Origin: an uncultured Lentimicrobiaceae bacterium
GTDB taxonomy: Bacteria > Bacteroidota > Bacteroidia > Bacteroidales > SKPS01
Direction of reading: 5' to 3'
Length of the DNA: 64,000 nt
Assembly: GCA_964652685.1 (NCBI GenBank)
Contig: CAZZBS010000013.1
Coordinates: 2,933 to 66,932, forward strand
Part shown: positions 3,954 through 15,822 of the stretch, piece by piece
How positions within the stretch are numbered: position 1 is the stretch's first letter
Layout: each line of letters opens with the position of its first letter
The notes under the pieces: model-generated
Database searches by the model: none
Seen by the model: the letters and a program-made list of their open reading frames with translations, nothing else
Told to the model about the DNA's origin: nothing
Program-made: the position numbers and the translations under genes

Positions 3954-4442
3954 ATGACAACTTCTGTTATCACTGAGCAGGAAATATTTGACATACAGCA
4001 GGCATGGGGAGAAGGTGTTGTAAAAATCGGAAAGGTTTATGCTGAAAATGGCGATTACAAATCAACTGCTGTCGAATTCATTAATGTATTTTACAATTAT
4101 CAGGAAAGTAGTGTTTTGTTTAAGCCGACGCTTGTGTCGGAGAAGCAATTTCGAACTGAGTTTGACGGAGCGTTGTCCTATTTTATTAGTGGGGATGAAC
4201 ATTACCCCGAAGACCATGGGTTTGCCATAAAACCCTGGAGTAAGGTCCGCTGGGAAAATATTGGAATAAGAAGCATTGGCAATATGGCTGTTGCAATGGG
4301 CAACTATTATTTCACACCTGCAAAGGAAGGGGATGATGTGAAAGCAGAATATTCATTTGCATACACGAAAAACAGGGAAGGCAAATTAAAAATTATTCTG
4401 CATGACTCACATTTGCCCTATAAGCCTGTAGAAAAACATTGA
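3954..4442 (+). CDS. COG4337-like (iota-class, SnoaL/NTF2-like fold) carbonic anhydrase candidate
   Basis: AWGEGVVKIG, VLFKPTL, GALSYF, YPEDHGFAIKPW, AMGNYYF, and C-terminal LHDSHLPY (family typically LHHSSLPY). ATG 3954 chosen as the start. Confidence 0.65.
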   Translation: MTTSVITEQEIFDIQQAWGEGVVKIGKVYAENGDYKSTAVEFINVFYNYQESSVLFKPTLVSEKQFRTEFDGALSYFISGDEHYPEDHGFAIKPWSKVRWENIGIRSIGNMAVAMGNYYFTPAKEGDDVKAEYSFAYTKNREGKLKIILHDSHLPYKPVEKH

Positions 4443-4606: not shown

Positions 4607-5731
4607 TCATGGCTTCAAAGGAATCTCGACCCTGAAGGTTGTCCCTATGTCCGGTTTACTCTCCACCGTAATGGTTCCTTTGTACAATTCAACCATCTTT
4701 TTAGCAATAGACAGTCCTAATCCACTTCCGGTAATATGCTTTGTCTTCTGGTTCCTGATCCTTACAAAATCCTGCATCAACATTCCCATTTCCTCCTGTG
4801 TCATACCTATACCTGTATCCTCAACAGTGATCGTTACAGATCCATTGCTTTTTCTCAGGTCTATAAATACGCTTCCGTTCTCCTTGTTATATTTTACAGC
4901 ATTTGAAACAAGGTTATTGAAGATGATCTCCATTTCATTTTGGTCGGCATTTATAATAATGCTCTCATCACCTTCGAGGGTTACTGTGATATTATGTTGA
5001 ATTGCCAGGGGTTCAACAGTATCGGCAACATTCCGTGCAATATCCACAAGATCAACAGGATGGATGTCTCGTTTTTTAACGCCTGACTCCATGCGCGTAA
5101 GGTCAAGCAGATCGAGAATGAGGCCACGCATCCCCTTGATCCTTTCAATAGACCTTTCTATCATCTCCATGTAATCATCAATCTGATTGCCGACCTGTTT
5201 GTCTTTCATTATTTTCAGGTATCCTTCAACGGCATTTATCGGTGATTTCAATTCATGAGACAGTACCGAAAGGAACTGAAAGCGAACACTCTTTCCCTCC
5301 TCCTTCATGCGGCGGGTCATCCGGCGCAGATAAAGATGTTTGGTGATGTTTTCAACGGATGTCTTCAGTTCCTGTGGGGTGAATGGTTTCGGAACAAAGT
5401 TATATGCTCCCTGATTTGTAGCTTTTATTGCCAGTTCCAGTGATGCGTAAGATGTGATCATGGTTACTGCAATATCGTAGTCTTTGTTTTTGATGTATTC
5501 AAGAACCTCAATACCCTGGATCCCCGGAAGTTTATTGTCCAGCAGGACAATGTCGATATTTGTGCTGTCGATGATTTCGATGGCTTTTTCACCGGTACCT
5601 GCCTCAAGGATATCATACGTGAAGTCCTCTTCCATGAATGGGTAGCTTACGGAATAATTCCGAAGGGCCCTCACGATGCTCGAGATTATCCCGGGTTCAT
5701 CGTCAACGACAAGAAGTTTTAACTTGTTCAT
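4607..5731 (-). CDS. Cytoplasmic hybrid histidine kinase (REC-HisKA-HATPase)
   Basis: N-terminal receiver (LVVDDE, LLDNKLPG, KP), H-box SHELKSP, N-box NLVSNAVKYN, G1 DTGIG, G2 GSGLGL. Confidence 0.9.
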   Translation of the reverse strand: MNKLKLLVVDDEPGIISSIVRALRNYSVSYPFMEEDFTYDILEAGTGEKAIEIIDSTNIDIVLLDNKLPGIQGIEVLEYIKNKDYDIAVTMITSYASLELAIKATNQGAYNFVPKPFTPQELKTSVENITKHLYLRRMTRRMKEEGKSVRFQFLSVLSHELKSPINAVEGYLKIMKDKQVGNQIDDYMEMIERSIERIKGMRGLILDLLDLTRMESGVKKRDIHPVDLVDIARNVADTVEPLAIQHNITVTLEGDESIIINADQNEMEIIFNNLVSNAVKYNKENGSVFIDLRKSNGSVTITVEDTGIGMTQEEMGMLMQDFVRIRNQKTKHITGSGLGLSIAKKMVELYKGTITVESKPDIGTTFRVEIPLKP

Positions 5732-6006
5732 ATACTCGGGGTTTATAATAATATTTGTCAGATCTATCGTGCAAAAGTGATGATAAATTGTGTACCGGTT
5801 TGTATAGTTTCAGGATTGGAATTGGGTTACCCGATAGTCGTCCGTTGTGCATTTACACTGTATTAGTGGAAGGTCCAGCCCGGTAGCTTTTCCCGGAGGT
5901 TTGGTGATGAAAAATGGTATAAACAGCTTTAAGTTCAGCAGTACAACTATTATGGCTTTCAATCGTGACATTATTACCTGATAACGATAAATCCTGAAAA
6001 AAACAT

Positions 6007-6029
6007 GGCATGGAAAAAAGTTCCATGCC
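6007..6029 (-). terminator. Rho-independent terminator after the receiver gene
   Basis: Perfect 9-bp stem GGCATGGAA/TTCCATGCC, with a U-run on the minus strand (AAAAAAA at about 5997-6003 on the plus strand). Confidence 0.7.
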
Positions 6030-6052
6030 CGTTTTCCTGCCATACGGAATTA

Positions 6053-6550
6053 TTATCCGATATGTTTTTCAATTTCATATAGAATTTTCTCAGCATCAAT
6101 AGGTTTCCTGACAAAACCCTTTACAGGAAACCAGTGTGAATTTCCTTGTTCGTCCATGTAATCAATACCGGCTGTATTGTCTACCACATTTTTTACCAGT
6201 ATTACCCTTAAATCTTTGAAATCGGGATTTTTGCGATATTCTCTTGCCATCTCCTGTACACTTGATTTGGAGGTCATAAGAATATCAATTGATGACTGAA
6301 TAAGGAAAGGGATATCTTTGAACTCATCACTGGAGAGCATCTGCCTTGCAAGTTCAAAACCTTCGTAAGGTGTTGTCATCATAACGTCAAGAATGGCAAG
6401 ATCCGGCTTTTCATTCCTGAGCATTTCAATACCCTCTTTACTGTTGCAGGCAGTTATGACCTGATAACCTTTTGATGTAAGAATGGTCTTAAGGGTGAGC
6501 AGGATATCTTCATCATCGTCAACAAGAAGGATTTTTTTTGTATTTTCCAT
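6053..6550 (-). CDS. Single-domain response regulator with an internal insertion
   Basis: ILLVDDDEDI, ILDVMM and RKP receiver motifs; no output domain. Confidence 0.85.
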   Translation of the reverse strand: MENTKKILLVDDDEDILLTLKTILTSKGYQVITACNSKEGIEMLRNEKPDLAILDVMMTTPYEGFELARQMLSSDEFKDIPFLIQSSIDILMTSKSSVQEMAREYRKNPDFKDLRVILVKNVVDNTAGIDYMDEQGNSHWFPVKGFVRKPIDAEKILYEIEKHIG

Positions 6551-6657: not shown

Positions 6658-7116
6658 CTACCAGACTTCAGTATATGCAGCATTGGTATAAATATTTTCA
6701 AGGCGCACTTTATGCCCTTGTTCCATTATTGCAAGCTGAAGAAATACCTCCTTTTCATTCTGATTTTCGATGGCATCAGCAAATCCCTGATACATCAACA
6801 TTGCCTCCTCCTCCTTTTTCATAGCCAGGGCAATTCCTTCTGCAAACGACATATCGGAAGTGAGAGGTGGGAGCTCTGTTGATTCAGCAATCTTATAGTC
6901 TGAGGTACTGGCTTTGAAGTTTAATTTCAACGACTCGTTCATGACAAATCCTTCGAGTGTCCGCTTATGGTTCAACTCCTCTTCGGCAAGTTCACGAAAA
7001 GTTCCTTTGAGATTATCTGACTTGGCTTTCAGGGAAGCACTGAGATAGAATTCATAAGCCTCTATTTCGTTTTGGATCGCCATTTTTAGTATCCTGTGAT
7101 AATCCGCATTGTTCAT
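6658..7116 (-). CDS. Rubrerythrin/ferritin-like diiron protein
   Basis: AIQNEIEAYEFY, LAEEELNHKRTL, AMKKEEEAMLMY, EQGHKVRL (ExxH pairs). Start trimmed to ATG 7116. Confidence 0.85.
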   Translation of the reverse strand: MNNADYHRILKMAIQNEIEAYEFYLSASLKAKSDNLKGTFRELAEEELNHKRTLEGFVMNESLKLNFKASTSDYKIAESTELPPLTSDMSFAEGIALAMKKEEEAMLMYQGFADAIENQNEKEVFLQLAIMEQGHKVRLENIYTNAAYTEVW

Positions 7117-7203
7117 GTTGTTGTTATTTTTGGTTAAGAAACTCTTGATTGATAAGTCATTCAAATAAATAAACGAAGAGTTAGATATTGGGACAAAAAT
7201 AAA

Positions 7204-7244
7204 AAAATGTATCATAACAATCAAATTCCGGGGCGATACATTTT
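7204..7244. promoter_or_regulatory. 10-bp perfect inverted repeat with a 21-nt spacer in the divergent fdh promoter region
   Basis: AAAATGTATC at 7204-7213 and GATACATTTT at 7235-7244. Confidence 0.4.
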
Positions 7245-7391
7245 GCATCATATTAGGAATGATTTTAAATAAGCTGTCCTGAGTGCCAATCATTACTAAT
7301 TTTGGGTTTTTTTTGTTTTGTTTTCTAATTTTGCTCATTGTACCCATACGGTTCATCAGTGGCAGAACTTAATCAACAAATTCATAACATC

Positions 7392-7796
7392 ATGGAACCC
7401 ACTATTGTACTTTCAGTAAAATGCCCGCATTGCAAAACCTCCCTAATGGATGACAGTACCATCCTGAAAGGAAAACCGGGAATAAGAATTAACATTGAAA
7501 CTGAAAAGGAGCGAGGGGTTCTATGGTTATGCCCAATATACAACTGTTTTACCCATAAAAGCAATATTGAGATTGCAGATGATGAACCGGTTAAATTTTT
7601 CTGCCCTCATTGCAATAAGAGTCTTAACAGCGACATAAGATGCAAGCTTTGTGATGCATCATTGGTGGATTTGAATATCAACATAGGTGGCAAGGTGCAT
7701 GTCTGTTCGCGAAAGGGGTGCAAAAATCATTTTGTGGTTTTTGAGGATCTGAATGATGCGCTGAGGCTTTTATACGATAAATTCGACAACCAATAA
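7392..7796 (+). CDS. Small Cys-rich metal-binding protein, first gene of the fdh operon
   Basis: CPHC, CPIYNC, CPHC, CKLC, CSRKGCKNH. Stop lies 17 nt upstream of the FDH start. Confidence 0.7.
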   Translation: MEPTIVLSVKCPHCKTSLMDDSTILKGKPGIRINIETEKERGVLWLCPIYNCFTHKSNIEIADDEPVKFFCPHCNKSLNSDIRCKLCDASLVDLNINIGGKVHVCSRKGCKNHFVVFEDLNDALRLLYDKFDNQ

Positions 7797-7813
7797 AACC
7801 AAAATCAATTTTT

Positions 7814-10534
7814 ATGGAAAATACAGTCAAGGTTAATATTAATGGCAAAATGCTGGAGGCCAGACAGGGAAAGACTGTGTTGGATGTTGCCCGTGAGAAC
7901 AACATCTACATACCTACTCTTTGTTATCATGCCAGGACAGGGAAAGCAGGCAAATGTCGTGCATGCCTTGTTGAGGTTGAGGGTTTACGGGGATTGAAAG
8001 AGAGTTGCGCCCTGGAGGTCAAGGATGGTATGGTGGTAAAAACCCGTACCGACCAGATCATTGAGATCAGAAAAATGATCGTTGAGCTTCATTTGTCAAA
8101 TGGTGAACATAACTGTATTGCATGTGAGAAGAATGGTCATTGTGAATTACAGGACATGGCCTATCATCTTGGCATAGAGAGGCCGGGGGTGTTGGTTGAT
8201 CACGACAAGATTCCTTTGGATGTTTCATCAGAGGGGATTATCAGGGAACCGGGGAAATGCATTGAATGTGGAAGGTGCATCCGCGCTTGCAACAACAATG
8301 TGATGCATGAGGTTCTTGATTTCGGCTGGCGTTCGGATCACATCCGGGTAATCTGTGACGATGACAAACCGATGGGAGAGTCATCATGTGTGCAGTGCGG
8401 TGAATGTGTACAGGTATGTCCGGTAGGGGCACTTACCTTCAAAAACGCCAAAGGTATGGGTCCATACTGGGAGCTTGAAAAGACAAAGGTTATCTGCACC
8501 TACTGTGGGGTTGGATGTTCTGTGGATATGTTCACAAAGGACAACAGGTATGTATACTCCATGGGAACAGAGGAGAACTGGGAAGGTTATGCCAATAAGG
8601 GAATGTTATGTGTCAAGGGGCGTTTTGGTTTTGACTTCCTGAATCGTGAAGACAGGTTGGATTCACCATTGATCAGGAAAAACGGGAAGCTGGAGAAAGC
8701 GGGCTGGGATGAGGCGCTGGATCTCGTAGCCGAAAAATTCAGCACCATCAGGGCAGAGCATGGTGCGGGATCGATAGGTTTCTTTACCTCCGCCAGAATA
8801 TCAAACGAAGAGAATTATGCACTAATGAGGTTCGCAAGGGGGGTTGTTGGCAACAACAACATCGACCATTGCGCCCGACTGTGACATAGCTCTACGGTTG
8901 CGGGACTGGCAATCACGTTAGGTTCAGGTGCAATGACCAATAGCATGCAGGAAACTGAAGATTCAGACATTATTTTTATTATTGGCACGAACACAACCTG
9001 GAACCATCCGGTTTTCGGAGGTATGATCAAAAAGGCTGTAATGCAGAAGGGGGTTAAGCTTATTGTTGTTGATCCCCGTGACATCGGCCTTTCAAAATAT
9101 GCTGACATCCACATGAAGCAGAACCCCGGTTCAGACAACGCCCTTTTAATGGGCCTTCAGCATATTATCGTAAAAAACAACTGGCACAACAAGGCATTTA
9201 TTGAAGAGAGGTGTGAAGGATGGGATGAATACCTCCAGAGCCTTGATTTTTACACACCCGGGAAGGTTGAGGAGATAAGCGGTATTCCTAAGGAGCAGTT
9301 GTATGAGGCTGCAAAGCTTTATGCCACATCCGGACGGGGTGCTGTCTTTTATGCAATGGGTATTACACAGCACTCACATGGGGTTGACAATGTAATGGCA
9401 GTAGCAAATCTGCAGATGATATTAGGCAATTACGGACTGCCCGGTACCGGTGTTAATCCGCTTCGTGGCCAGAACAACGTGCAGGGAGCATGTGATATGG
9501 GTGGATTACCAAACGTATTCACAGGTTATCAGCCTGTTGTAAATGAGGATGCACGCAAGAAATTTGCTGAAGCCTGGGGAAAGAAGCCTGAGGAAATGGA
9601 TGACAAGGTCGGGCAGACTGTTACCACAATGGTCCAGAATGCAGGTGATTCCATCAAGGCTCTTTATATTGTCGGAGAAAATCCCATGATGTCTGACCCA
9701 AATCAGAATCATGCAAAGAAGCAGATGCAGAAGCTCGATTTCATGGTTGTTCAGGACATCTTCCTGACGGAAACTGCCCAGATAGCCGATGTTGTCTTAC
9801 CGGCTTTTGCATTTGCTGAGAAGTACGGTACAATCACCAATACTGAGCGAAGGGTTCAGTTTACAAACAAGGCGCTCATAGGCCCTGCGGGTGCGAAAAG
9901 TGATCATGAAATTATTGCAGCCATAGCTAAGAGGATGGGTTGTGAAGACTTCCCGGAAACTGTTGATGAATTATATGACGAGATACGAAAACTGACTCCC
10001 TCTTATGCCGGCATTTCTTATGAGAGGATAAGGAACAGCGCAGGCCTCAGATGGCCATGTCCGACTGAAGAACACCCCGGGACACCCATACTGCATATTG
10101 GAAAGTTTGCCCGTGGCAAAGGGCTGCTTAAACCTATTGAATACAAGCCGCCGTCCGAATATGCAGATACGGATTATCCGCTGGTCCTTACCACAGGACG
10201 GTTATTGCAGCATTATCATACCGGGTCAATGACAAGGCGCTCAAAGGTGTTGAATGGTATCGTTCCATCCGGGATGATTGAAATAAACGCTACTGATGCC
10301 AAAGCACTCAATATTAAGAACGGCGAAAAAGTAAAGGTCTCATCACGTCGTGGCACTATTGAGATCACTGCTCTGGTAACCACAAAGATCAAAAAGGGGA
10401 TAGTCTTTATACCCTTCCATTTTGCAGAAACTGCTGCCAATATTTTAACCAATGATGCTCTTGACCCTGTAGCAAAGATCCCGGAATATAAGGTTTGTGC
10501 CGTTAAGGTCGAGAAGATTGAAGAGTGTTGCTAA
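7814..10534 (+). CDS. fdhF: Selenocysteine-containing formate dehydrogenase alpha subunit (NuoG-like Fe-S N-terminus plus Mo/W-bisPGD domain)
   Basis: ORFs 7814..8884 and 8933..10534 are in frame, and the TGA at 8882-8884 falls in IDHCARL-U-HSSTVAGL, the FdhF catalytic Sec position. Also CTYCGVGC, PLRGQNNVQGACDMG, LTTGR and MPFH-like FIPFHF, plus N-terminal 2Fe-2S and 4Fe-4S motifs. Confidence 0.93.
8882..8914 (+). promoter_or_regulatory. Bacterial SECIS element
   Basis: Hairpin GGTTGC (8896-8901), loop GGGACTG, GCAATC (8909-8914), starting 11 nt after the UGA with a G-rich apical loop, as in the E. coli fdhF SECIS layout. Confidence 0.8.
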
Positions 10535-10551
10535 TAATAATCCCCAGGTAA

Positions 10552-12282
10552 ATGAAGAAGGAATTAATAAAAAGAATAGAAAAGATCATGGGCAGATATC
10601 CGCAGAAGGAATCTGCCCTGATGCCTGCCCTGATGCTTGTTCAGAAAGCAAATGGAAACAACCTGTCAAAGGAGGATGTTGCGGAAATTGCCGACATCAT
10701 TGGTATACCGCTTTCAAGAGCATTTGGTGTTGCAACCTATTATTCAATGTTCAATGTTGAAAAAGGGATTGGGAAATACCATCTTCAGGTTGACACCAAT
10801 ATTCCTGCAACCCTGATGGGGGCTTTGGATATTTACAATTACTTGAGTGAAAAGTTAGGCATTAAGCACGGAGAAACAACTCCTGACGGACTTTTTACCC
10901 TTTCTAAGGTTGAATGTCTTGCCTCTTGTGGCACTTGTCCGGTGGTTCAGGTTAACGACGTTTATTATGAATTGATGACCCGGAAGAAAGTTGATCTTCT
11001 GATCGATTCATTGCGCAACGGAATAATGCCTGACCTGCCGGTGGAATATCATTACGAATCGTTGTGCAATGTTCTGTTGAAAAACCGTGGTGTTGAAAAT
11101 GCCACTTCAATCAAGATTTATAAGGAGCTCGGCGGGTATAAGACACTTGCCAAAGCTTTAAAGATGAAACCTGAAGAAATCATTCAGGAGGTAAAGGATT
11201 CTCAGTTGCGTGGGAGGGGTGGTGCAGGTTTCCCGACAGGGATAAAATGGGGTTTCCTTCCCAAAAACACGGATAAGCCGGTGTATCTTATCTGTAATGC
11301 AGATGAAGGTGAGCCGGGTACTTTCAAAGACAGGCAGATTCTTGCCTATGACCCACACCTTCTTGTTGAGGGAATGGCGATTACTGCTTATGCATTAGGG
11401 TGTAAACTTGCTTTTATCTATATCCGTGGTGAATTTTCATGGATTGCAGAGATATTGGAGAAAGCTATTGCAGAGGCAACGGCTGATGGACAGTTGAAGC
11501 ACATGGATGACATCATTGTTCACCAGGGTGCCGGTTCATACGTCTGTGGCGAAGAAACAGCCCTTATAGAGTCTATTGAAGGCAAGAGAGGTTTTCCCAG
11601 GATGAAGCCACCATTTCCCGCAGTGGAAGGATTGTATCATTGTCCGACCATCGTGAACAATGTTGAGACACTTGCAAGCGTACCCTATATTATTCAAAAC
11701 GGAGCCAACGCCTTTAAACAATGGGGTTCCGAAGGGGGGTACGGATTTAAACTGTTCGGTGTTTCAGGTTGCGTGAATAAACCTGGTGTTTACGAGTGTC
11801 CGATGGGGATCCCTTTCAGCAAGCTTATTGAGATGGCCGGAGGTATAAAGGGTAAGATGACAGGCGTTATTGTAGGGGGACTTTCTGTACCTCTGCTAAC
11901 AACTGAAGAGCTTAAAAAAGGTCCCGGATTGAAGATGGATTATGAATCATGTTTCGACTACGGAACATCCCTGGGGTCCGGTGGTGTAATGGTTATCAGC
12001 GATGAGTTCTCCATCCCGGAGATAGCTGTCCGTACCATGCAGTTCTATAACCATGAGTCGTGCGGACAGTGTACACCATGCAGGCAGGGTTCCAGCATGA
12101 TGCTCAGTATTCTTAAAAAAATCATAGACGGCAAAGGCGAATCCGGAGATATTGATAAAGTTTTATGGCTCTGTAACAATATTAAGGGCAACACACTTTG
12201 CCCGACAGGTGAAGCATATTCATCCCCGATAAAAACCATGATCAACAAATTCAGAAAAGAATTTGAAGAATTAGTAAAATAA
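10552..12282 (+). CDS. NuoE-NuoF fusion (FMN/NADH-binding diaphorase subunit of the FDH)
   Basis: NuoE part VATYYSMF...VECLASC. NuoF part RGRGGAGFPTGIKW, NADEGEPGTFKDR, YVCGEETAL, NNVETLA, ESCGQCTPCRQG...LCPTG. Confidence 0.88.
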   Translation: MKKELIKRIEKIMGRYPQKESALMPALMLVQKANGNNLSKEDVAEIADIIGIPLSRAFGVATYYSMFNVEKGIGKYHLQVDTNIPATLMGALDIYNYLSEKLGIKHGETTPDGLFTLSKVECLASCGTCPVVQVNDVYYELMTRKKVDLLIDSLRNGIMPDLPVEYHYESLCNVLLKNRGVENATSIKIYKELGGYKTLAKALKMKPEEIIQEVKDSQLRGRGGAGFPTGIKWGFLPKNTDKPVYLICNADEGEPGTFKDRQILAYDPHLLVEGMAITAYALGCKLAFIYIRGEFSWIAEILEKAIAEATADGQLKHMDDIIVHQGAGSYVCGEETALIESIEGKRGFPRMKPPFPAVEGLYHCPTIVNNVETLASVPYIIQNGANAFKQWGSEGGYGFKLFGVSGCVNKPGVYECPMGIPFSKLIEMAGGIKGKMTGVIVGGLSVPLLTTEELKKGPGLKMDYESCFDYGTSLGSGGVMVISDEFSIPEIAVRTMQFYNHESCGQCTPCRQGSSMMLSILKKIIDGKGESGDIDKVLWLCNNIKGNTLCPTGEAYSSPIKTMINKFRKEFEELVK

Positions 12283-12342
12283 CCTTCTCAATAATTTATA
12301 ACCTTTATTCATCAACAAACAAAACCAAAAGGAGATTGAATT

Positions 12343-13170
12343 ATGTCAAACAAACCAAGCGAAATTGTATTGGGCTGTATTAATGCCGGATCGTACAAAG
12401 CAAATTTGAATATTAAGAATTTGTTATTAAGAGGATTTATGGCAGGTTTGTTCATTGCTGTTGGAGGTGCTCTTGCAACAGTATGTGCAACAGGAATTGA
12501 AACTGCCGGCATCAAACAACTAGTTCTGGGATCAGTCTTCCCCGTAGGACTCATCGCGATCGTGCTAACCGGAATGTCTCTTTTTACTGGTGATACAATG
12601 CTTCTGCCCATGTCTGCTATGCACAAGCAAATTACATGGTCGAAAGTACTTTGGGTATGGCTTATTGTCTACATTGCCAATTTTATCGGTTCAGTATTCT
12701 GGGCCTACCTGATGAATGTTGGTCCGTTCGCAAAACTGGATCCTGCAACAGGTATGCAATCCCTTACAGTTTTTGGAGAAAGTGCCGTAAAGATCGCTGA
12801 AGCCAAAGTATTAGGTTATAAGGCAGCAGGTGCCACAGGATTATGGTCAGCTTTTATGAAAGCCATAGCCTGTAACTTGCTTGTTAATACTGCCATAATC
12901 CTTGCTTTCTCATCAAAAAGTATGATTGGAAAGTTCTTTGGAATATGGTTCCCGATCATGGCCTTCGTTTCTTCAGGATTCGAACATAGTGTAGCCAATA
13001 TGTATTTCATTCCTGCTGGTATTTTTAGCGGAGCTAATGTTTCATGGGGTGAGTTTTTAACATGGAATCTCGCTCCTGTTACACTTGGGAATATAGTGGG
13101 AGGTATGATATTTATTGGTGTAGTATATTATTCATGCTATAAAAAAGAACTTCCCGGTATTGCAGAATAA
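12343..13170 (+). CDS. fdhC: Formate/nitrite transporter (FdhC/FocA family)
   Basis: GSVFPVGLIAIVLTGMSLFTG, KAIACNLLVN, FPIMAFVSSGFEHSVANMYFIP, PVTLGNIVGG. Confidence 0.9.
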   Translation: MSNKPSEIVLGCINAGSYKANLNIKNLLLRGFMAGLFIAVGGALATVCATGIETAGIKQLVLGSVFPVGLIAIVLTGMSLFTGDTMLLPMSAMHKQITWSKVLWVWLIVYIANFIGSVFWAYLMNVGPFAKLDPATGMQSLTVFGESAVKIAEAKVLGYKAAGATGLWSAFMKAIACNLLVNTAIILAFSSKSMIGKFFGIWFPIMAFVSSGFEHSVANMYFIPAGIFSGANVSWGEFLTWNLAPVTLGNIVGGMIFIGVVYYSCYKKELPGIAE

Positions 13171-13192
13171 CCATCTTTCTGAGAACTAATAA

Positions 13193-13219
13193 GGGGCTGC
13201 CAATAAAAAAAGCAGCCCC
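13193..13219 (+). terminator. Probable terminator of the fdh operon
   Basis: 8-bp GC stem GGGGCTGC/GCAGCCCC just after the FNT stop; the U-tract is weak. Confidence 0.55.
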
Positions 13220-13340
13220 ATATTCATTTTATAATACTTTGATTTAATAGGTTTACAAGTCAACTCATCATGCACTGTCAGCAAAAGAAAAGTATCCTAT
13301 AAATGGTCATTATCAGCCATTCCTGGATATATAGTAACTC

Positions 13341-14522
13341 ATGATACAACGGCCTGACTTCATTATAATTGGTTCCACTGGCAGAAACACCGGTAAGACT
13401 GAATTTGCGTGCCGGTTGATAGAGCGGTACGCAAAAACCAATAAAATATATGGAGTTAAGGTGGTTACCATAGACCCCGATGAGGGTAACTGCCCCAGGG
13501 GCGGGAAAGGTTGCGGGGTTTGCACCTCCCTGAAAAAAAATTTCGAGATCATTGAAGAGAATCAGATTTTACCGGGCAAAGACACATCCAGGATGCTTGC
13601 GGCAGGTGCGATAAAAGTTTTTATGTTGAAAGTGAATCAGCATGCACTGGAAGAGGGGATAAATGCATTTATAAAACTTGTTCCGGATGATACGCTTGTA
13701 GTCTGTGAATCAAACTCTGTAAGAAAAGTTGTTGATCCCGGGCTTTTTCTGGTTATAAAAAATGTCAGGGAGAAACGGATAAAGGAGAGCTGTGCCGAGG
13801 TAATCGACTATGCAGACAAGGTGATAGATTTCCTGGAAATGAATTGGAATTTCTCTCCCGAGAGGATATATATACGTGATAACAGTTGGCAAATACGGGA
13901 GAATGCCACTGCAATCATCCTGGCAGGTGGTAAAAGCACAAGGATGGGTGGTGAAGACAAAAGTTTATTGCCTGTGAATGGCATACCATTGATAGAACAT
14001 ATATCAAATCAACTGAAAGGACATTTTGATGAAGTTCTGATCGGTGCCAATGATCCGGAGAAATATTCCTTCCTCCATCTGCGGGTAGTACCGGACATTG
14101 AAGCAGGTAAAGGCCCTCTTATGGGTATTTTATCATGTCTTGATGCTTCAGATAGTGAATTGAATTTCATAACAGCCTGCGATATACCAGAGATGAACAT
14201 TAAGCTTATAAGAAGAATGATAAATCTGGCTTCTGATGCCGACATTGTAATGCCGGTCAGCGAAACTGATAAGTACGAGCCTTTATACGCCATATACAGG
14301 AAATCTGTAGCAGGATTTGCACGTAAGGTGTTGGGTAATAATAAACGCAGAATAATAGAACTATTCGATTACACCAGGGTTACGTTTACTGAGTTCAAAG
14401 AGGATGACTGGTATCAGAATATAAATCTTAAGGAAGACTACGACAGTTTTGTGAAAAAGCGCGAAACAAGGCAATGTGACAGAGAAGATGATGATCGTTT
14501 TTTAGCTCAACATTTTGTTTAA
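13341..14522 (+). CDS. mobA: Fusion of an uncharacterised Cys-motif P-loop domain to molybdenum cofactor guanylyltransferase MobA
   Basis: C-terminal half: ILAGGKSTRMGGEDK, GKGPLMGI, TACDIP, EPLYAIY, NIN. N-terminal half: GSTGRNTGKT and CPRGGKGCGVC. Confidence 0.8.
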   Translation: MIQRPDFIIIGSTGRNTGKTEFACRLIERYAKTNKIYGVKVVTIDPDEGNCPRGGKGCGVCTSLKKNFEIIEENQILPGKDTSRMLAAGAIKVFMLKVNQHALEEGINAFIKLVPDDTLVVCESNSVRKVVDPGLFLVIKNVREKRIKESCAEVIDYADKVIDFLEMNWNFSPERIYIRDNSWQIRENATAIILAGGKSTRMGGEDKSLLPVNGIPLIEHISNQLKGHFDEVLIGANDPEKYSFLHLRVVPDIEAGKGPLMGILSCLDASDSELNFITACDIPEMNIKLIRRMINLASDADIVMPVSETDKYEPLYAIYRKSVAGFARKVLGNNKRRIIELFDYTRVTFTEFKEDDWYQNINLKEDYDSFVKKRETRQCDREDDDRFLAQHFV

Positions 14523-14634
14523 GAAAACTATAATAAAAAGATTTTTTTTTCATTGCAGGTTTATCATAATCCATTAAGTTTGCCTGAATAACCAAAAGTC
14601 TGAAGATAAGTATTAACCATTAATTTCCAAAAAG

Positions 14635-15822
14635 ATGACAACAAAACGGTTACTTCTAATGGTTTTGGTGATGATATTCATTACCCCTGTTATAAATGCG
14701 CAGGATAAAGAAAAAGAGGGTGACAAGAAGTTGGTCCTGATCCCTTATGGATTTGTAAAAGGAGATATGTTTTATTCCACTGCCGAGGTGACTTCGTTTG
14801 GTGTCCTGAGTCTTGCTGCCCCTCAGTTAGCCACAGGCGGTGAACAGAGTGCAATAGGTTTTACTGCGCAACACTCGCGTCTTGGACTTCGTGGTAGTGT
14901 CGGCGAGAAGATCAAAGCAGGAGGTCTTATTGAGATGGATTTTTTCACAAATGCATTTGATGCAAACGGAAAACCCCGCATCCGGCTCGGTTATGCATCC
15001 GTTTCCAAAGGAGGTTTCGAAGCCCGTTTAGGACAGCAATGGGACCTTTTTTCCCCCAATAACGCTTTTACCAACAATACGAATGGAAATATGTGGTTTG
15101 CCGGTAACAGGGGCTTTCGTAGAGCGCAAATCCAAATGAGCTATAAATATGATTTAGGCGATTTTGTTCCGATGATACAGGCATCAGTGGGCGAAGGAGC
15201 AAGAGACAATGAGGGCCTGGGAAAAGACAACCTCTCCGGCATTCCGATGATACAGGCCAGGGTATCCGGATTGATTTATAAAAAATATACTATTGGCGTA
15301 TCCTATGTTCAGGCAGGATTTCTTGAAAAAAAAGGCTCCAATATCGTAATACAAGATAGTACCTGGATTTTACCATCTGATTATACCGCTACTACAACCG
15401 GAATAGGCATAGATTTTAATGCACCGGTACATAAGTATTTTGCATTATCAGGTGAATTCAATATAGGGACTAACCTTAATAATGCTAATTTATTTAACAT
15501 TGCCGGTAATTATTCATTTAAAGATGTAGCAGGGAAAGCCAGTCTCGTTAATAAGGAGAGTATTGGCTTGTGGTTTAATGCACGTTCACAGGTTACTGAT
15601 TGGATGCGTGTTGTCGTAGGTTATGGTTTTGATCAGAATACTACGGAAGGTTTAGCGGATGGCTCATTAGAGAAAAACAGTGTTATCTATGGCAATTTAA
15701 CATTTCCCGTTAAACATGGCTTTTCAGTTGCCGTAGAGTTCCAGAATATTACCGGCAAAAGAATTAATGCTGATGATTTGGTCGCTAATATAATCAGCTT
15801 ATCAGCATCAGTCAGTTTTTAA
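14635..15822 (+). CDS. Outer-membrane porin (DcaP-like)
   Basis: Signal peptide, YGFVKGD, QHSRLGL, IEMDF, PRIRLGY, LGQQWDLF and a terminal Phe. TAAGTTTG promoter box at 14575-14582. Confidence 0.7.
   Translation: MTTKRLLLMVLVMIFITPVINAQDKEKEGDKKLVLIPYGFVKGDMFYSTAEVTSFGVLSLAAPQLATGGEQSAIGFTAQHSRLGLRGSVGEKIKAGGLIEMDFFTNAFDANGKPRIRLGYASVSKGGFEARLGQQWDLFSPNNAFTNNTNGNMWFAGNRGFRRAQIQMSYKYDLGDFVPMIQASVGEGARDNEGLGKDNLSGIPMIQARVSGLIYKKYTIGVSYVQAGFLEKKGSNIVIQDSTWILPSDYTATTTGIGIDFNAPVHKYFALSGEFNIGTNLNNANLFNIAGNYSFKDVAGKASLVNKESIGLWFNARSQVTDWMRVVVGYGFDQNTTEGLADGSLEKNSVIYGNLTFPVKHGFSVAVEFQNITGKRINADDLVANIISLSASVSF

Follow-up and report, generated by a model that had tools for sequence, protein, structure and literature searches.

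The 64,000-nucleotide stretch of DNA analysed here (the window; contig C13:2933-66932) comes from the 2.89 Mb, 97 % complete metagenome-assembled genome of an uncultured digester bacterium of the Lentimicrobiaceae. Six + strand genes spanning 7392-15822 form a cassette around a formate dehydrogenase (FDH), encoding a Cys-rich protein, the FDH alpha subunit FdhA, a NuoE-NuoF fusion, a channel of the formate/nitrite transporter (FNT) family, a P-loop/MobA fusion, and a porin. The best overall explanation, considered probable but well short of certain, is that this is a mobile cassette for a selenocysteine (Sec)-containing FDH that uses NAD only and has its own path for formate. The cofactor specificity, the substrate of the porin, and the direction of flux are inferred. 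An earlier note on this DNA had placed five of the genes together on one strand, and all five were verified on the + strand; its start for the module, 7392, is the start of the sixth gene, that of the 134-amino-acid (aa) Cys-rich protein, which it did not mention. The genes and sites concerned are as follows.

7392..7796, + strand: Cys-rich protein of 134 aa with two zinc-ribbon-like halves, 17 nt upstream of fdhA; DZR match below cut-off.
7814..10534, + strand: fdhA, alpha subunit of a cytoplasmic FDH with a molybdenum- or tungsten-bispyranopterin guanine dinucleotide (Mo/W-bisPGD) cofactor and NuoG-like N-terminal [2Fe-2S]/[4Fe-4S] domains (TIGR01591).
8882..8884, + strand: UGA selenocysteine codon (U357), from the orthologue alignment.
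8896..8914, + strand: hairpin like a selenocysteine insertion sequence (SECIS-like), GGUUGC-GGGACUG-GCAAUC, which begins 11 nt 3′ of the UGA and has a stem of 6 bp and a loop of 7 nt.
10552..12282, + strand: NuoE-NuoF fusion, 576 aa, with a flavin mononucleotide (FMN)/NADH site and the N3 [4Fe-4S] cluster (Complex1_51K, SLBB, NADH_4Fe-4S; CxxCxxC...C motif).
10789..10941, + strand: degenerate NuoE [2Fe-2S] site, with VDTNIPA for the first Cys pair (VCxxxxC) and ECLASCGTCP as the second pair plus an extra Cys.
11212-11241, + strand: GRGGAGFPTG, in the NuoE-NuoF fusion.
11299..11334, + strand: ADEGEPGTFKDR motif of the complex-I / non-bifurcating type, residues 250-261, exact match.
12055-12084, + strand: ESCGQCTPCR, in the NuoE-NuoF fusion.
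12343..13170, + strand: FNT-family channel (PF01226, 258 bits), with the T motif LFTGD and the H motif FEHSVANM present, which carry the conserved Thr and His of FNT pores.
13341..14522, + strand: P-loop/Cys-motif domain (GSTGRNTGKT, CPRGGKGCGVC) fused to MobA, the guanylyltransferase of the molybdenum cofactor, from Pfam/TIGR profiles.
14635..15822, + strand: outer-membrane beta-barrel porin, 395 aa, of an unnamed FDH-linked family (signal peptide, C-terminal Phe, AlphaFold2 fold).

FdhA is read from two open reading frames (ORFs) that an in-frame TGA at 8882-8884 connects, which places U357 within HCARLUHSST. Its TIGR01591 score is 826 bits (cut-off 666); it keeps the U357-H358 pair and the PLRGQNNVQG motif and has no Tat signal. 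The NuoG-like N-terminus matches Fer2_4, NADH-G_4Fe-4S_3, Fer4_7, and Molybdop_Fe4S4 in Pfam, and the best full-length sequence matches in the PDB are FDH1 alpha of M. extorquens (682 bits) and FdsA of R. capsulatus (659 bits). No other true Mo/W-bisPGD enzyme is encoded in the genome, the one further PF00384 match being a Stn/Nfn-like protein.

Comparison of 14 aligned Bacteroidota orthologues shows TGA at the U357 codon in 12 and a Cys codon (TGT/TGC) in two; L006 and L011 are orthologues of the Cys type. The loop of the SECIS-like hairpin is identical in all 12 Sec loci, and three positions vary in its 3′ arm, all of them preserving the pair (GC/GU, UG/UA); these changes are of the wobble type only, with no double compensatory changes. 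Both Cys loci have synonymous substitutions in the loop and the basal pair, leaving the peptide TVAGLA unchanged. Because the single-sequence fold of the region 3′ of the UGA is not significant alone (z = 0.61), the case for the hairpin rests on these comparative data. The selB, selA, and tRNA-Sec genes are present together on contig C35 of the same genome. With the UGA/Cys interchange, the SECIS-like hairpin, and this machinery all found, FdhA is, as judged from sequence, a bacterial selenoprotein. The genes on C35 belong to a cluster (C35:8703-14161) of selD, a yedF/TusA-like gene, a class-V aminotransferase gene, selB, selA, and tRNA-Sec. Several relatives have sel genes right beside the FDH cassette itself (e.g. 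L113:1-6143; L123:1-2178), so the FDH may be the main selenoprotein.

In the second subunit, the NuoE domain directly precedes NuoF, the protein terminates in NADH_4Fe-4S, and neither the N-terminal [2Fe-2S] domain nor the C-terminal 2x[4Fe-4S] domain of BfuB (clusters B2-B5) is present. The conserved A and M of the Bfu motif ADEGDPGAFM are absent, the flavoprotein reading ADEGEPGTFK (T/K). The ADEGEPGTFKDR motif and the missing C-terminal 2x[4Fe-4S] domain, both reported for the flavin subunit in the earlier note, were thereby verified. Bifurcating Bfu enzymes need clusters B2-B5 (BfuB), C1 (BfuC), and A202/M204, the latter missing in non-bifurcating homologues (PMC9304861), and the same sequence features have been used to separate non-bifurcating from bifurcating flavoproteins (PMC7311640). 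Across the fetched loci and the five paralogues of this genome, proteins with ADEGEPGTFKDR lack the C-terminal 2x[4Fe-4S] domain and those with ADEGDPGAFM[DN]R have it. Three HydB-type paralogues of the same genome carry the domain, two of which read ADEGDPGAFMDR.

The NuoE domain matches PF01257 at 142 bits. On alignment with NDUFV2, VDTNIPA is seen where NDUFV2 has VCTTTPC; D/A stands in place of the first Cys pair throughout the 16 Bacteroidota orthologues, replacing two of the four [2Fe-2S] ligands. All other NuoE/HydC domains aligned from the fetched loci keep four Cys. From the alignment, the C1-equivalent (N1a) cluster is absent or non-canonical, and this argues against bifurcation of the Bfu type. 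The NuoF part scores 380 bits against complex I Nqo1/NuoF, 306-322 against HydB, and 259-285 against FdsB/Fdh1B. In a maximum-likelihood tree, 15 FDH-linked NuoEF proteins form one clade (support 100/100) that is nested in the complex-I NuoF clade (100/100; Bdellovibrionota, Acidobacteriota, and others) and lies apart from both the Bfu-type HydB and the short-HydB clades. Candidate NuoEF fusions in Acidobacteriota and Bdellovibrionota were rejected, L016, L024, and L019 having separate nuoE and nuoF genes in ordinary nuo operons. The domains, the T/K motif, and the nesting in complex-I NuoF agree with the prediction of the earlier note that the enzyme is NAD-linked and non-bifurcating; the flavoprotein has the signature of an NAD(H)-only, non-bifurcating protein, and NAD is most likely the sole partner of the enzyme in electron exchange.

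The transport steps appear to be encoded with the enzyme. The FNT protein is closest to FocA but falls below the equivalog (TIGR04060, 150 bits; cut-off 290), and its gene context points to formate as the substrate. An FNT gene occupies the slot between nuoEF and mobA in this window and in L006 only; in most relatives an approximately 425-aa transporter gene from the major facilitator superfamily (MFS) occurs there instead. In L001, the nearest relative in the genome collection (NuoEF identity 92 %), this MFS protein is of the OFA / SfMCT-like family (NF049980, 335 bits), while the slot gene is MFS_1 by Pfam in L122 and L123 and a tblastn match in L113. Since two unrelated monocarboxylate carriers use one conserved slot, the transport step is likely to be part of the cassette.

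The AlphaFold2 model of the porin is a beta-barrel, with a mean predicted local distance difference test (pLDDT) score of 84.6, and its best PDB fold match by Foldseek is DcaP (E 1.4e-17, template modelling score 0.75), followed by Omp32, OmpT, and OmpF. The signal peptide, barrel fold, and C-terminal Phe fit the 16-stranded outer-membrane porins (Porin_4 / OmpF / DcaP fold). Pfam gives no match for this protein even at E = 1; a few of its 185 homologues carry a weak PF13609 (Porin_4) hit. Arg/Lys residues 82, 94, 115, 117, 162, 163, and 209 are invariant and are candidates for the lining of the pore. In an even, order-wide sample of 201 genomes, full-length porin homologues were found in nine, five of which are among the six genomes positive for the NuoEF-FDH (Fisher p = 2.9e-7). 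The earlier note would have been undermined had the MobA and porin genes not been co-conserved with fdh; they are, as this co-occurrence and the synteny of related loci show. It had also raised the distribution of the module, which is patchy: six of the 201 genomes, each of a different family, carry a NuoEF-FDH orthologue (at least 68 % identity), and one genome of the same genus lacks it.

Four genomes carry the porin without the NuoEF-FDH: G101, G118, G107, and one with an uninformative copy at a contig end. In both G101 and G118 the porin gene comes last in an operon of Tat-FdhA (Sec), FdhB, NrfD, an FdhE-like protein, MobA (in G101), and a MOSC-like protein; the G101 operon was checked by Pfam and that of G118 was matched to it by ORF pattern. 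In G107 the porin adjoins mobA-fdhD-MOSC and a Bfu-type FdhA/HydB/HydC enzyme. Six further homologues were examined, the sixth being the same contig-end copy. The three most distant (44-45 % identity) are all inside periplasmic FdhAB-NrfD operons, one of them from candidate division KSB1; one distant homologue is located between fdhD and fdhE, and two further homologues repeat the cassette of the window. Every informative porin context examined contained an FDH, of one of three architectures (NuoEF, Bfu, or periplasmic FdhAB-NrfD), in at least two phyla. In KSB1 and one other genome (L119:11527-14271, L120:11528-14468) the porin is followed by a 264-aa gene and then a TonB-dependent receptor gene.

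PF00384 enzymes are present in 126 of the 201 genomes and the porin in 11, so it does not accompany Mo/W enzymes in general. No other transport gene is present in the periplasmic FDH operons; formate for these enzymes would cross the outer membrane only, oxyanions would need an inner-membrane transporter too, and formate is therefore favoured as the substrate. It is regarded as about twice as probable as oxyanions. The barrel may represent a new family of FDH-dedicated, formate-selective porins that travels with three FDH architectures in at least two phyla (Bacteroidota and KSB1), and the NuoEF fusion without an N1a site a distinct complex-I-derived lineage of NAD-linked FDH. This joint proposal is tentative, its probability being put slightly below even.

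In the fusion protein encoded at 13341-14522, the MobA domain covers residues 191-338 and passes PF12804 (127 bits), scoring 119 bits against TIGR02665 (cut-off 152). The N-terminal 185 aa are a P-loop domain of no assigned family, with only a weak MobB match (E 0.0066) and no PDB sequence match. This gene follows the transporter gene in nearly all related loci with contigs that reach that far. No FdhD was found in the 97 % complete genome by tblastn with a verified FdhD as the query (PF02634, 242 bits), and no MOSC homologue was found in the genome. As speculation, the P-loop Cys-motif domain (CPRGGKGCGVC, within 13341-13895) might stand in for the missing factors and sulfurate or insert the cofactor. 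In relatives that have FDHs of other types, FdhD and MOSC are both encoded next to mobA.

The gene for the Cys-rich protein is directly 5′ of fdhA in eight related loci (L001-3, 5, 7, 9, 11, 12), with invariant Cys at 11, 14, 71, 74, 84, 87, 105, and 110. Its AlphaFold2 model (pLDDT 78) has no PDB fold match (best E 0.5), and none of the 49 homologue clusters of the family is annotated. It may be a family of metal-centre maturation or chaperone factors. In other Bacteroidales, homologues are tail-to-tail with hypE-hypD-hypC, and on an Asgard archaeon contig the homologue is present as two tandem copies 5′ of a Bfu-type flavoprotein gene; the coordinates of homologues outside the window are L047:1042-1884 and, in L114-L118, around 10001-10402.

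The rest of the genome gives the metabolic setting. Pyruvate formate-lyase (PFL) was considered as the source of formate and rejected, being absent from the genome. The possibility that the FDH is the NADH-input module of an 11-subunit complex I was likewise rejected, as tblastn queries taken from the fetched nuo operons (NuoA, B, CD, D, H, and L) found nothing; with no complex I membrane arm, the enzyme is expected to be soluble and not an input module of Nuo. The genome encodes the Na+-translocating NADH:quinone oxidoreductase Na+-NQR (NqrA 570 bits, NqrF 622 bits) as well as the flavoprotein of a fumarate reductase (1149 bits), so NADH from formate could drive fumarate respiration. This check used local tblastn and NCBIfam, the latter for NqrA, NqrF, and FrdA. 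A complete-looking nqrABCDEF is at C14:5336-11246, beside ApbE-like and UbiA-type prenyltransferase-like ORFs, and a frdCAB-type fumarate reductase is at C3:73098-76502. The genome also has a HydABC hydrogenase with a short HydB of the non-bifurcating signature ADEGEPGTFKDRE, without extra cluster domains. Other redox complexes in this genome are a bifurcating-type HydABC, a third, divergent HydABC-like set, a Stn/NfnABC-like Bfu complex that includes a 1228-aa GltD/NuoG/molybdopterin-like subunit, and Rnf; the redox-complex loci are C10:48765-52295, C10:21372-25146, C10:13458-17620, C5:78-6164, and C27:32383-36492. The reaction of formate with NAD+ is exergonic under standard conditions. It is concluded that the enzyme serves as a valve between formate and NAD(H) that works in both directions, and import with oxidation is somewhat more likely than export to be the selected function.

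Around the cassette, the following signals and neighbouring genes were found.

7297..7333, + strand: two Bacteroidota-type -7 boxes (TAATTTTG), from a TAnnTTTG regex and consensus match only; candidate promoter of the core operon.
13193..13219, + strand: GC-rich hairpin followed by an A/U-rich tract, terminator-like, 3′ of the FNT gene.
14575..14582, + strand: -7 box TAAGTTTG 5′ of the porin gene, consensus match only; possibly its own promoter.
4607-5731, - strand: REC-HisKA-HATPase hybrid kinase, a neighbour kept beside the cassette in relatives.
6053-6550, - strand: single-domain response regulator, a neighbour kept beside the cassette in relatives.

The terminator-like hairpin has a folding energy (dG) of -18.6 kcal/mol (z = -3.15), with none of 200 shuffles folding as well. 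Given this hairpin after the FNT gene and the separate -7 boxes, two or three transcription units are likely. The sole RNA-Seq-labelled run that contains the stretch has a flat contig depth of ~2-7 on both strands, with genes equal to spacers, and is probably DNA or uninformative. In the closest relative a Cache_3-Cache_2 sensor histidine kinase gene (L001:3642-5390) lies between those of the REC-kinase and the response regulator, and such a kinase also adjoins the cassette in L002-L005 and L008. It is absent from the present genome, the corresponding gap in the window (5731-6053) being only ~320 nt. A rubrerythrin/ferritin-like gene (6658-7356, - strand) is divergent from the cassette and is kept in L001 and L002; a rubrerythrin gene is also at the edge of L122. 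An iota-carbonic-anhydrase-like gene (3954-4442; NF047901, 131 bits, below cut-off) was rejected as a member of the module, with a homologue in no related FDH locus, and its proximity looks incidental.

The mechanism proposed is that of a horizontally mobile cassette for a soluble, cytoplasmic Sec-containing Mo- or W-FDH, with an alpha subunit of the Fds/FDH1 architecture. Electrons would pass, reversibly, from the formate/CO2 site to NAD+/NADH by way of the NuoG-like Fe-S chain in FdhA, then the N3 [4Fe-4S] cluster and the FMN of the complex-I-type NuoE-NuoF fusion, with no ferredoxin and no electron bifurcation. The NuoE domain, its canonical N1a [2Fe-2S] site lost, would probably have a structural role only. 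Formate would cross the inner membrane via the FNT channel (in most relatives, the MFS monocarboxylate transporter) and the outer membrane via the dedicated, probably anion-selective porin, and the bis-molybdopterin guanine dinucleotide cofactor would be made by the P-loop/MobA fusion. The direction of this reversible reaction would be set by the levels of formate, CO2, and NAD(H). Its selected function would be mainly the scavenging of external formate, with electrons going from formate to NADH, Na+-NQR, menaquinone, and fumarate reductase; reduction of CO2 to formate would be an overflow valve for times when partners keep formate low.

The earlier note had instead put syntrophic formate export in its headline, with the enzyme mainly an NADH-driven CO2 reductase and formate leaving via the FNT channel and the porin for partners. 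This is considered unlikely as the principal function, yet it has evidence on its side. In the absence of PFL, any formate made by the organism must come from the FdhA enzyme. The short-HydB hydrogenase is like those of syntrophs (PMC7311640), S. aciditrophicus provides a precedent in its soluble NADH-dependent FDHs and FocA-like channel, with ~20 uM formate (PMC8805022), and near-identical sequence is present in bioreactor, biogas, landfill, and sludge metagenomes. However, the step from NADH to CO2 is endergonic under standard conditions, NQR and fumarate reductase offer a productive sink for NADH, and a dedicated porin is not expected for the efflux of a small anion. Five of the examined porin relatives are in periplasmic FdhAB-NrfD operons, taken as formate-oxidizing, and an extracytoplasmic Cache sensor kinase is beside the cassette in relatives. 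The headline was not established: these FdhAB-NrfD contexts, the NQR with fumarate reductase, and the Cache kinase make import and oxidation, which the earlier note also allowed, at least as likely as export. A mainly anabolic role, in which the enzyme would make or take up formate for formate-tetrahydrofolate ligase and one-carbon units, is very unlikely. Such a ligase is encoded in the genome (850 bits) and there is no PFL to supply it, but its gene is on a different contig from the cassette, and most of the order, one genome of the same genus among them, lacks the cassette despite the universality of one-carbon metabolism. A selenoenzyme, a porin, and sensor kinases are also judged excessive for anabolic supply.

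The position of the porin directly 3′ of mobA in many loci could instead mean that it carries the oxyanions tungstate, molybdate, or selenite and not formate, the more so as most of the associated FDHs contain Sec and the fold class includes anion-specific porins (OprO ranks 44th). This is quite unlikely given how rare the porin is among the genomes with PF00384 enzymes. It also accompanies FDHs of the Cys type (L011, G107), the periplasmic FDH operons encode no inner-membrane oxyanion transporter, and the cytoplasmic cassettes pair the porin with a monocarboxylate transporter. Least probable, and very doubtful indeed, is an enzyme that depends on ferredoxin or bifurcates, whether through a partner encoded elsewhere or through a re-ligated NuoE cluster (Asp + three Cys). 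Asp81 and the extra Cys are kept in 15 of 16 orthologues, so that some cluster might bind, and with Rnf and several Bfu-type complexes in the genome reduced ferredoxin would be available. The flavoprotein, however, is without the N- and C-terminal cluster domains and the A/M residues of characterized BfuB and nests within complex-I NuoF, and L011, the most divergent orthologue, keeps a single Cys at the NuoE site.

The reading of an NAD-only cassette with its own formate path also has points that weigh against it. With neither an FdhD nor a MOSC homologue, maturation of the enzyme may be unusual or incomplete. NAD specificity and ferredoxin independence are suggested by signatures and by analogy, and formate as the porin substrate by gene context and fold alone, with tungstate, molybdate, and selenite also among the candidates. 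SfMCT, the characterized member of the MFS family of the relatives, is specific for L-lactate, only monocarboxylates of at least three carbons having competed for uptake (PMC6573034). The non-bifurcating NADH hydrogenase, the lack of PFL, and the methanogenic habitats fit export equally well. Lastly, the hairpin and the separate -7 boxes suggest that the six genes are divided among two or three transcription units.

Formate is a main interspecies electron currency in digesters, sediments, and guts. To our knowledge, its route across the outer membrane in Gram-negative bacteria is poorly understood. A porin family that tracks FDHs of three architectures is a concrete, testable candidate for a formate porin; if the proposal is true, outer-membrane formate flux would be a specifically encoded, regulated step in anaerobic interspecies electron transfer. 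The compact, two-subunit NAD-linked selenoenzyme without N1a would be a natural experiment on the purpose of the N1a cluster, and FdhA-NuoEF is a possible catalyst for NADH-driven reduction of CO2. The cassette would also mark the subset of fermentative Bacteroidales in methanogenic systems that is able to tap or feed the formate pool. A literature search found no paper on the FDH-linked porin family, on the alternation of FNT and MFS in one slot, or on a NuoEF fusion without N1a, although syntrophs are already known to combine a soluble NADH-dependent FDH and an FNT channel (PMC8805022).

Among known systems, the tungsten FDH1 of M. extorquens AM1 (Fdh1AB; PDB 7E5Z / 7VW6) is likewise a two-subunit NAD-linked enzyme, its alpha subunit having a NuoG-like N-terminus and aligning over 4-902. 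It has Cys where FdhA has Sec. The beta subunit here scores 282 bits against Fdh1B, compared with 380 bits for complex I NuoF; it belongs to the complex-I lineage and has lost the NuoE [2Fe-2S] ligands. The Fdh1 beta subunit is described as a NuoE-NuoF fusion too, of about equal size (chain of 572 aa, against 576 aa here). The host here is an anaerobic member of the Bacteroidota, and the genes are clustered with those for a channel, a porin, and MobA. FdsGBA(CD) of Rhodobacter capsulatus and Cupriavidus necator (PDB 6TG9, 6VW7) is similarly non-bifurcating, with electrons going from Mo-bisPGD through an Fe-S chain and FMN to NAD+. There, FdsG, which carries a [2Fe-2S] cluster, is a subunit distinct from FdsB, the active-site residue is Cys in place of the Sec here, and the hosts are aerobic; FdsC (FdhD-like) and FdsD are required, whereas this genome has no FdhD homologue. 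Features shared with FdsABG and Fdh1AB are the Mo/W-bisPGD alpha subunit, here with Sec-His, its NuoG-like N-terminus, and the NuoF FMN/NADH site with N3; the four-Cys NuoE cluster and an FdhD/FdsC partner are not found here.

The soluble NADH-dependent FDHs and FocA-like channel of S. aciditrophicus, which serve formate cycling (PMC8805022), resemble the present system in combining a cytoplasmic NADH-linked FDH with a bidirectional FNT protein, and the non-bifurcating HydAB/Hyd1ABC hydrogenases of syntrophs differ from bifurcating ones by the same signature (PMC7311640). In contrast to S. aciditrophicus, the cassette is from another phylum, its genome has no partner periplasmic FDH (the only other PF00384 protein being Stn/Nfn-like), and it co-encodes a NuoEF fusion without the N1a site and a dedicated outer-membrane porin. 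For the porin itself, the closest known proteins are the best fold matches, DcaP of A. baumannii (6EUS) and Omp32 of Delftia acidovorans (1E54 / 2FGQ; E about 1e-11), the PDB entries of the latter being titled anion-selective and solved with bound malate. Sequence identity to DcaP and Omp32 is only 12-20 %, and the family described here is defined instead by its FDH gene neighbourhood.

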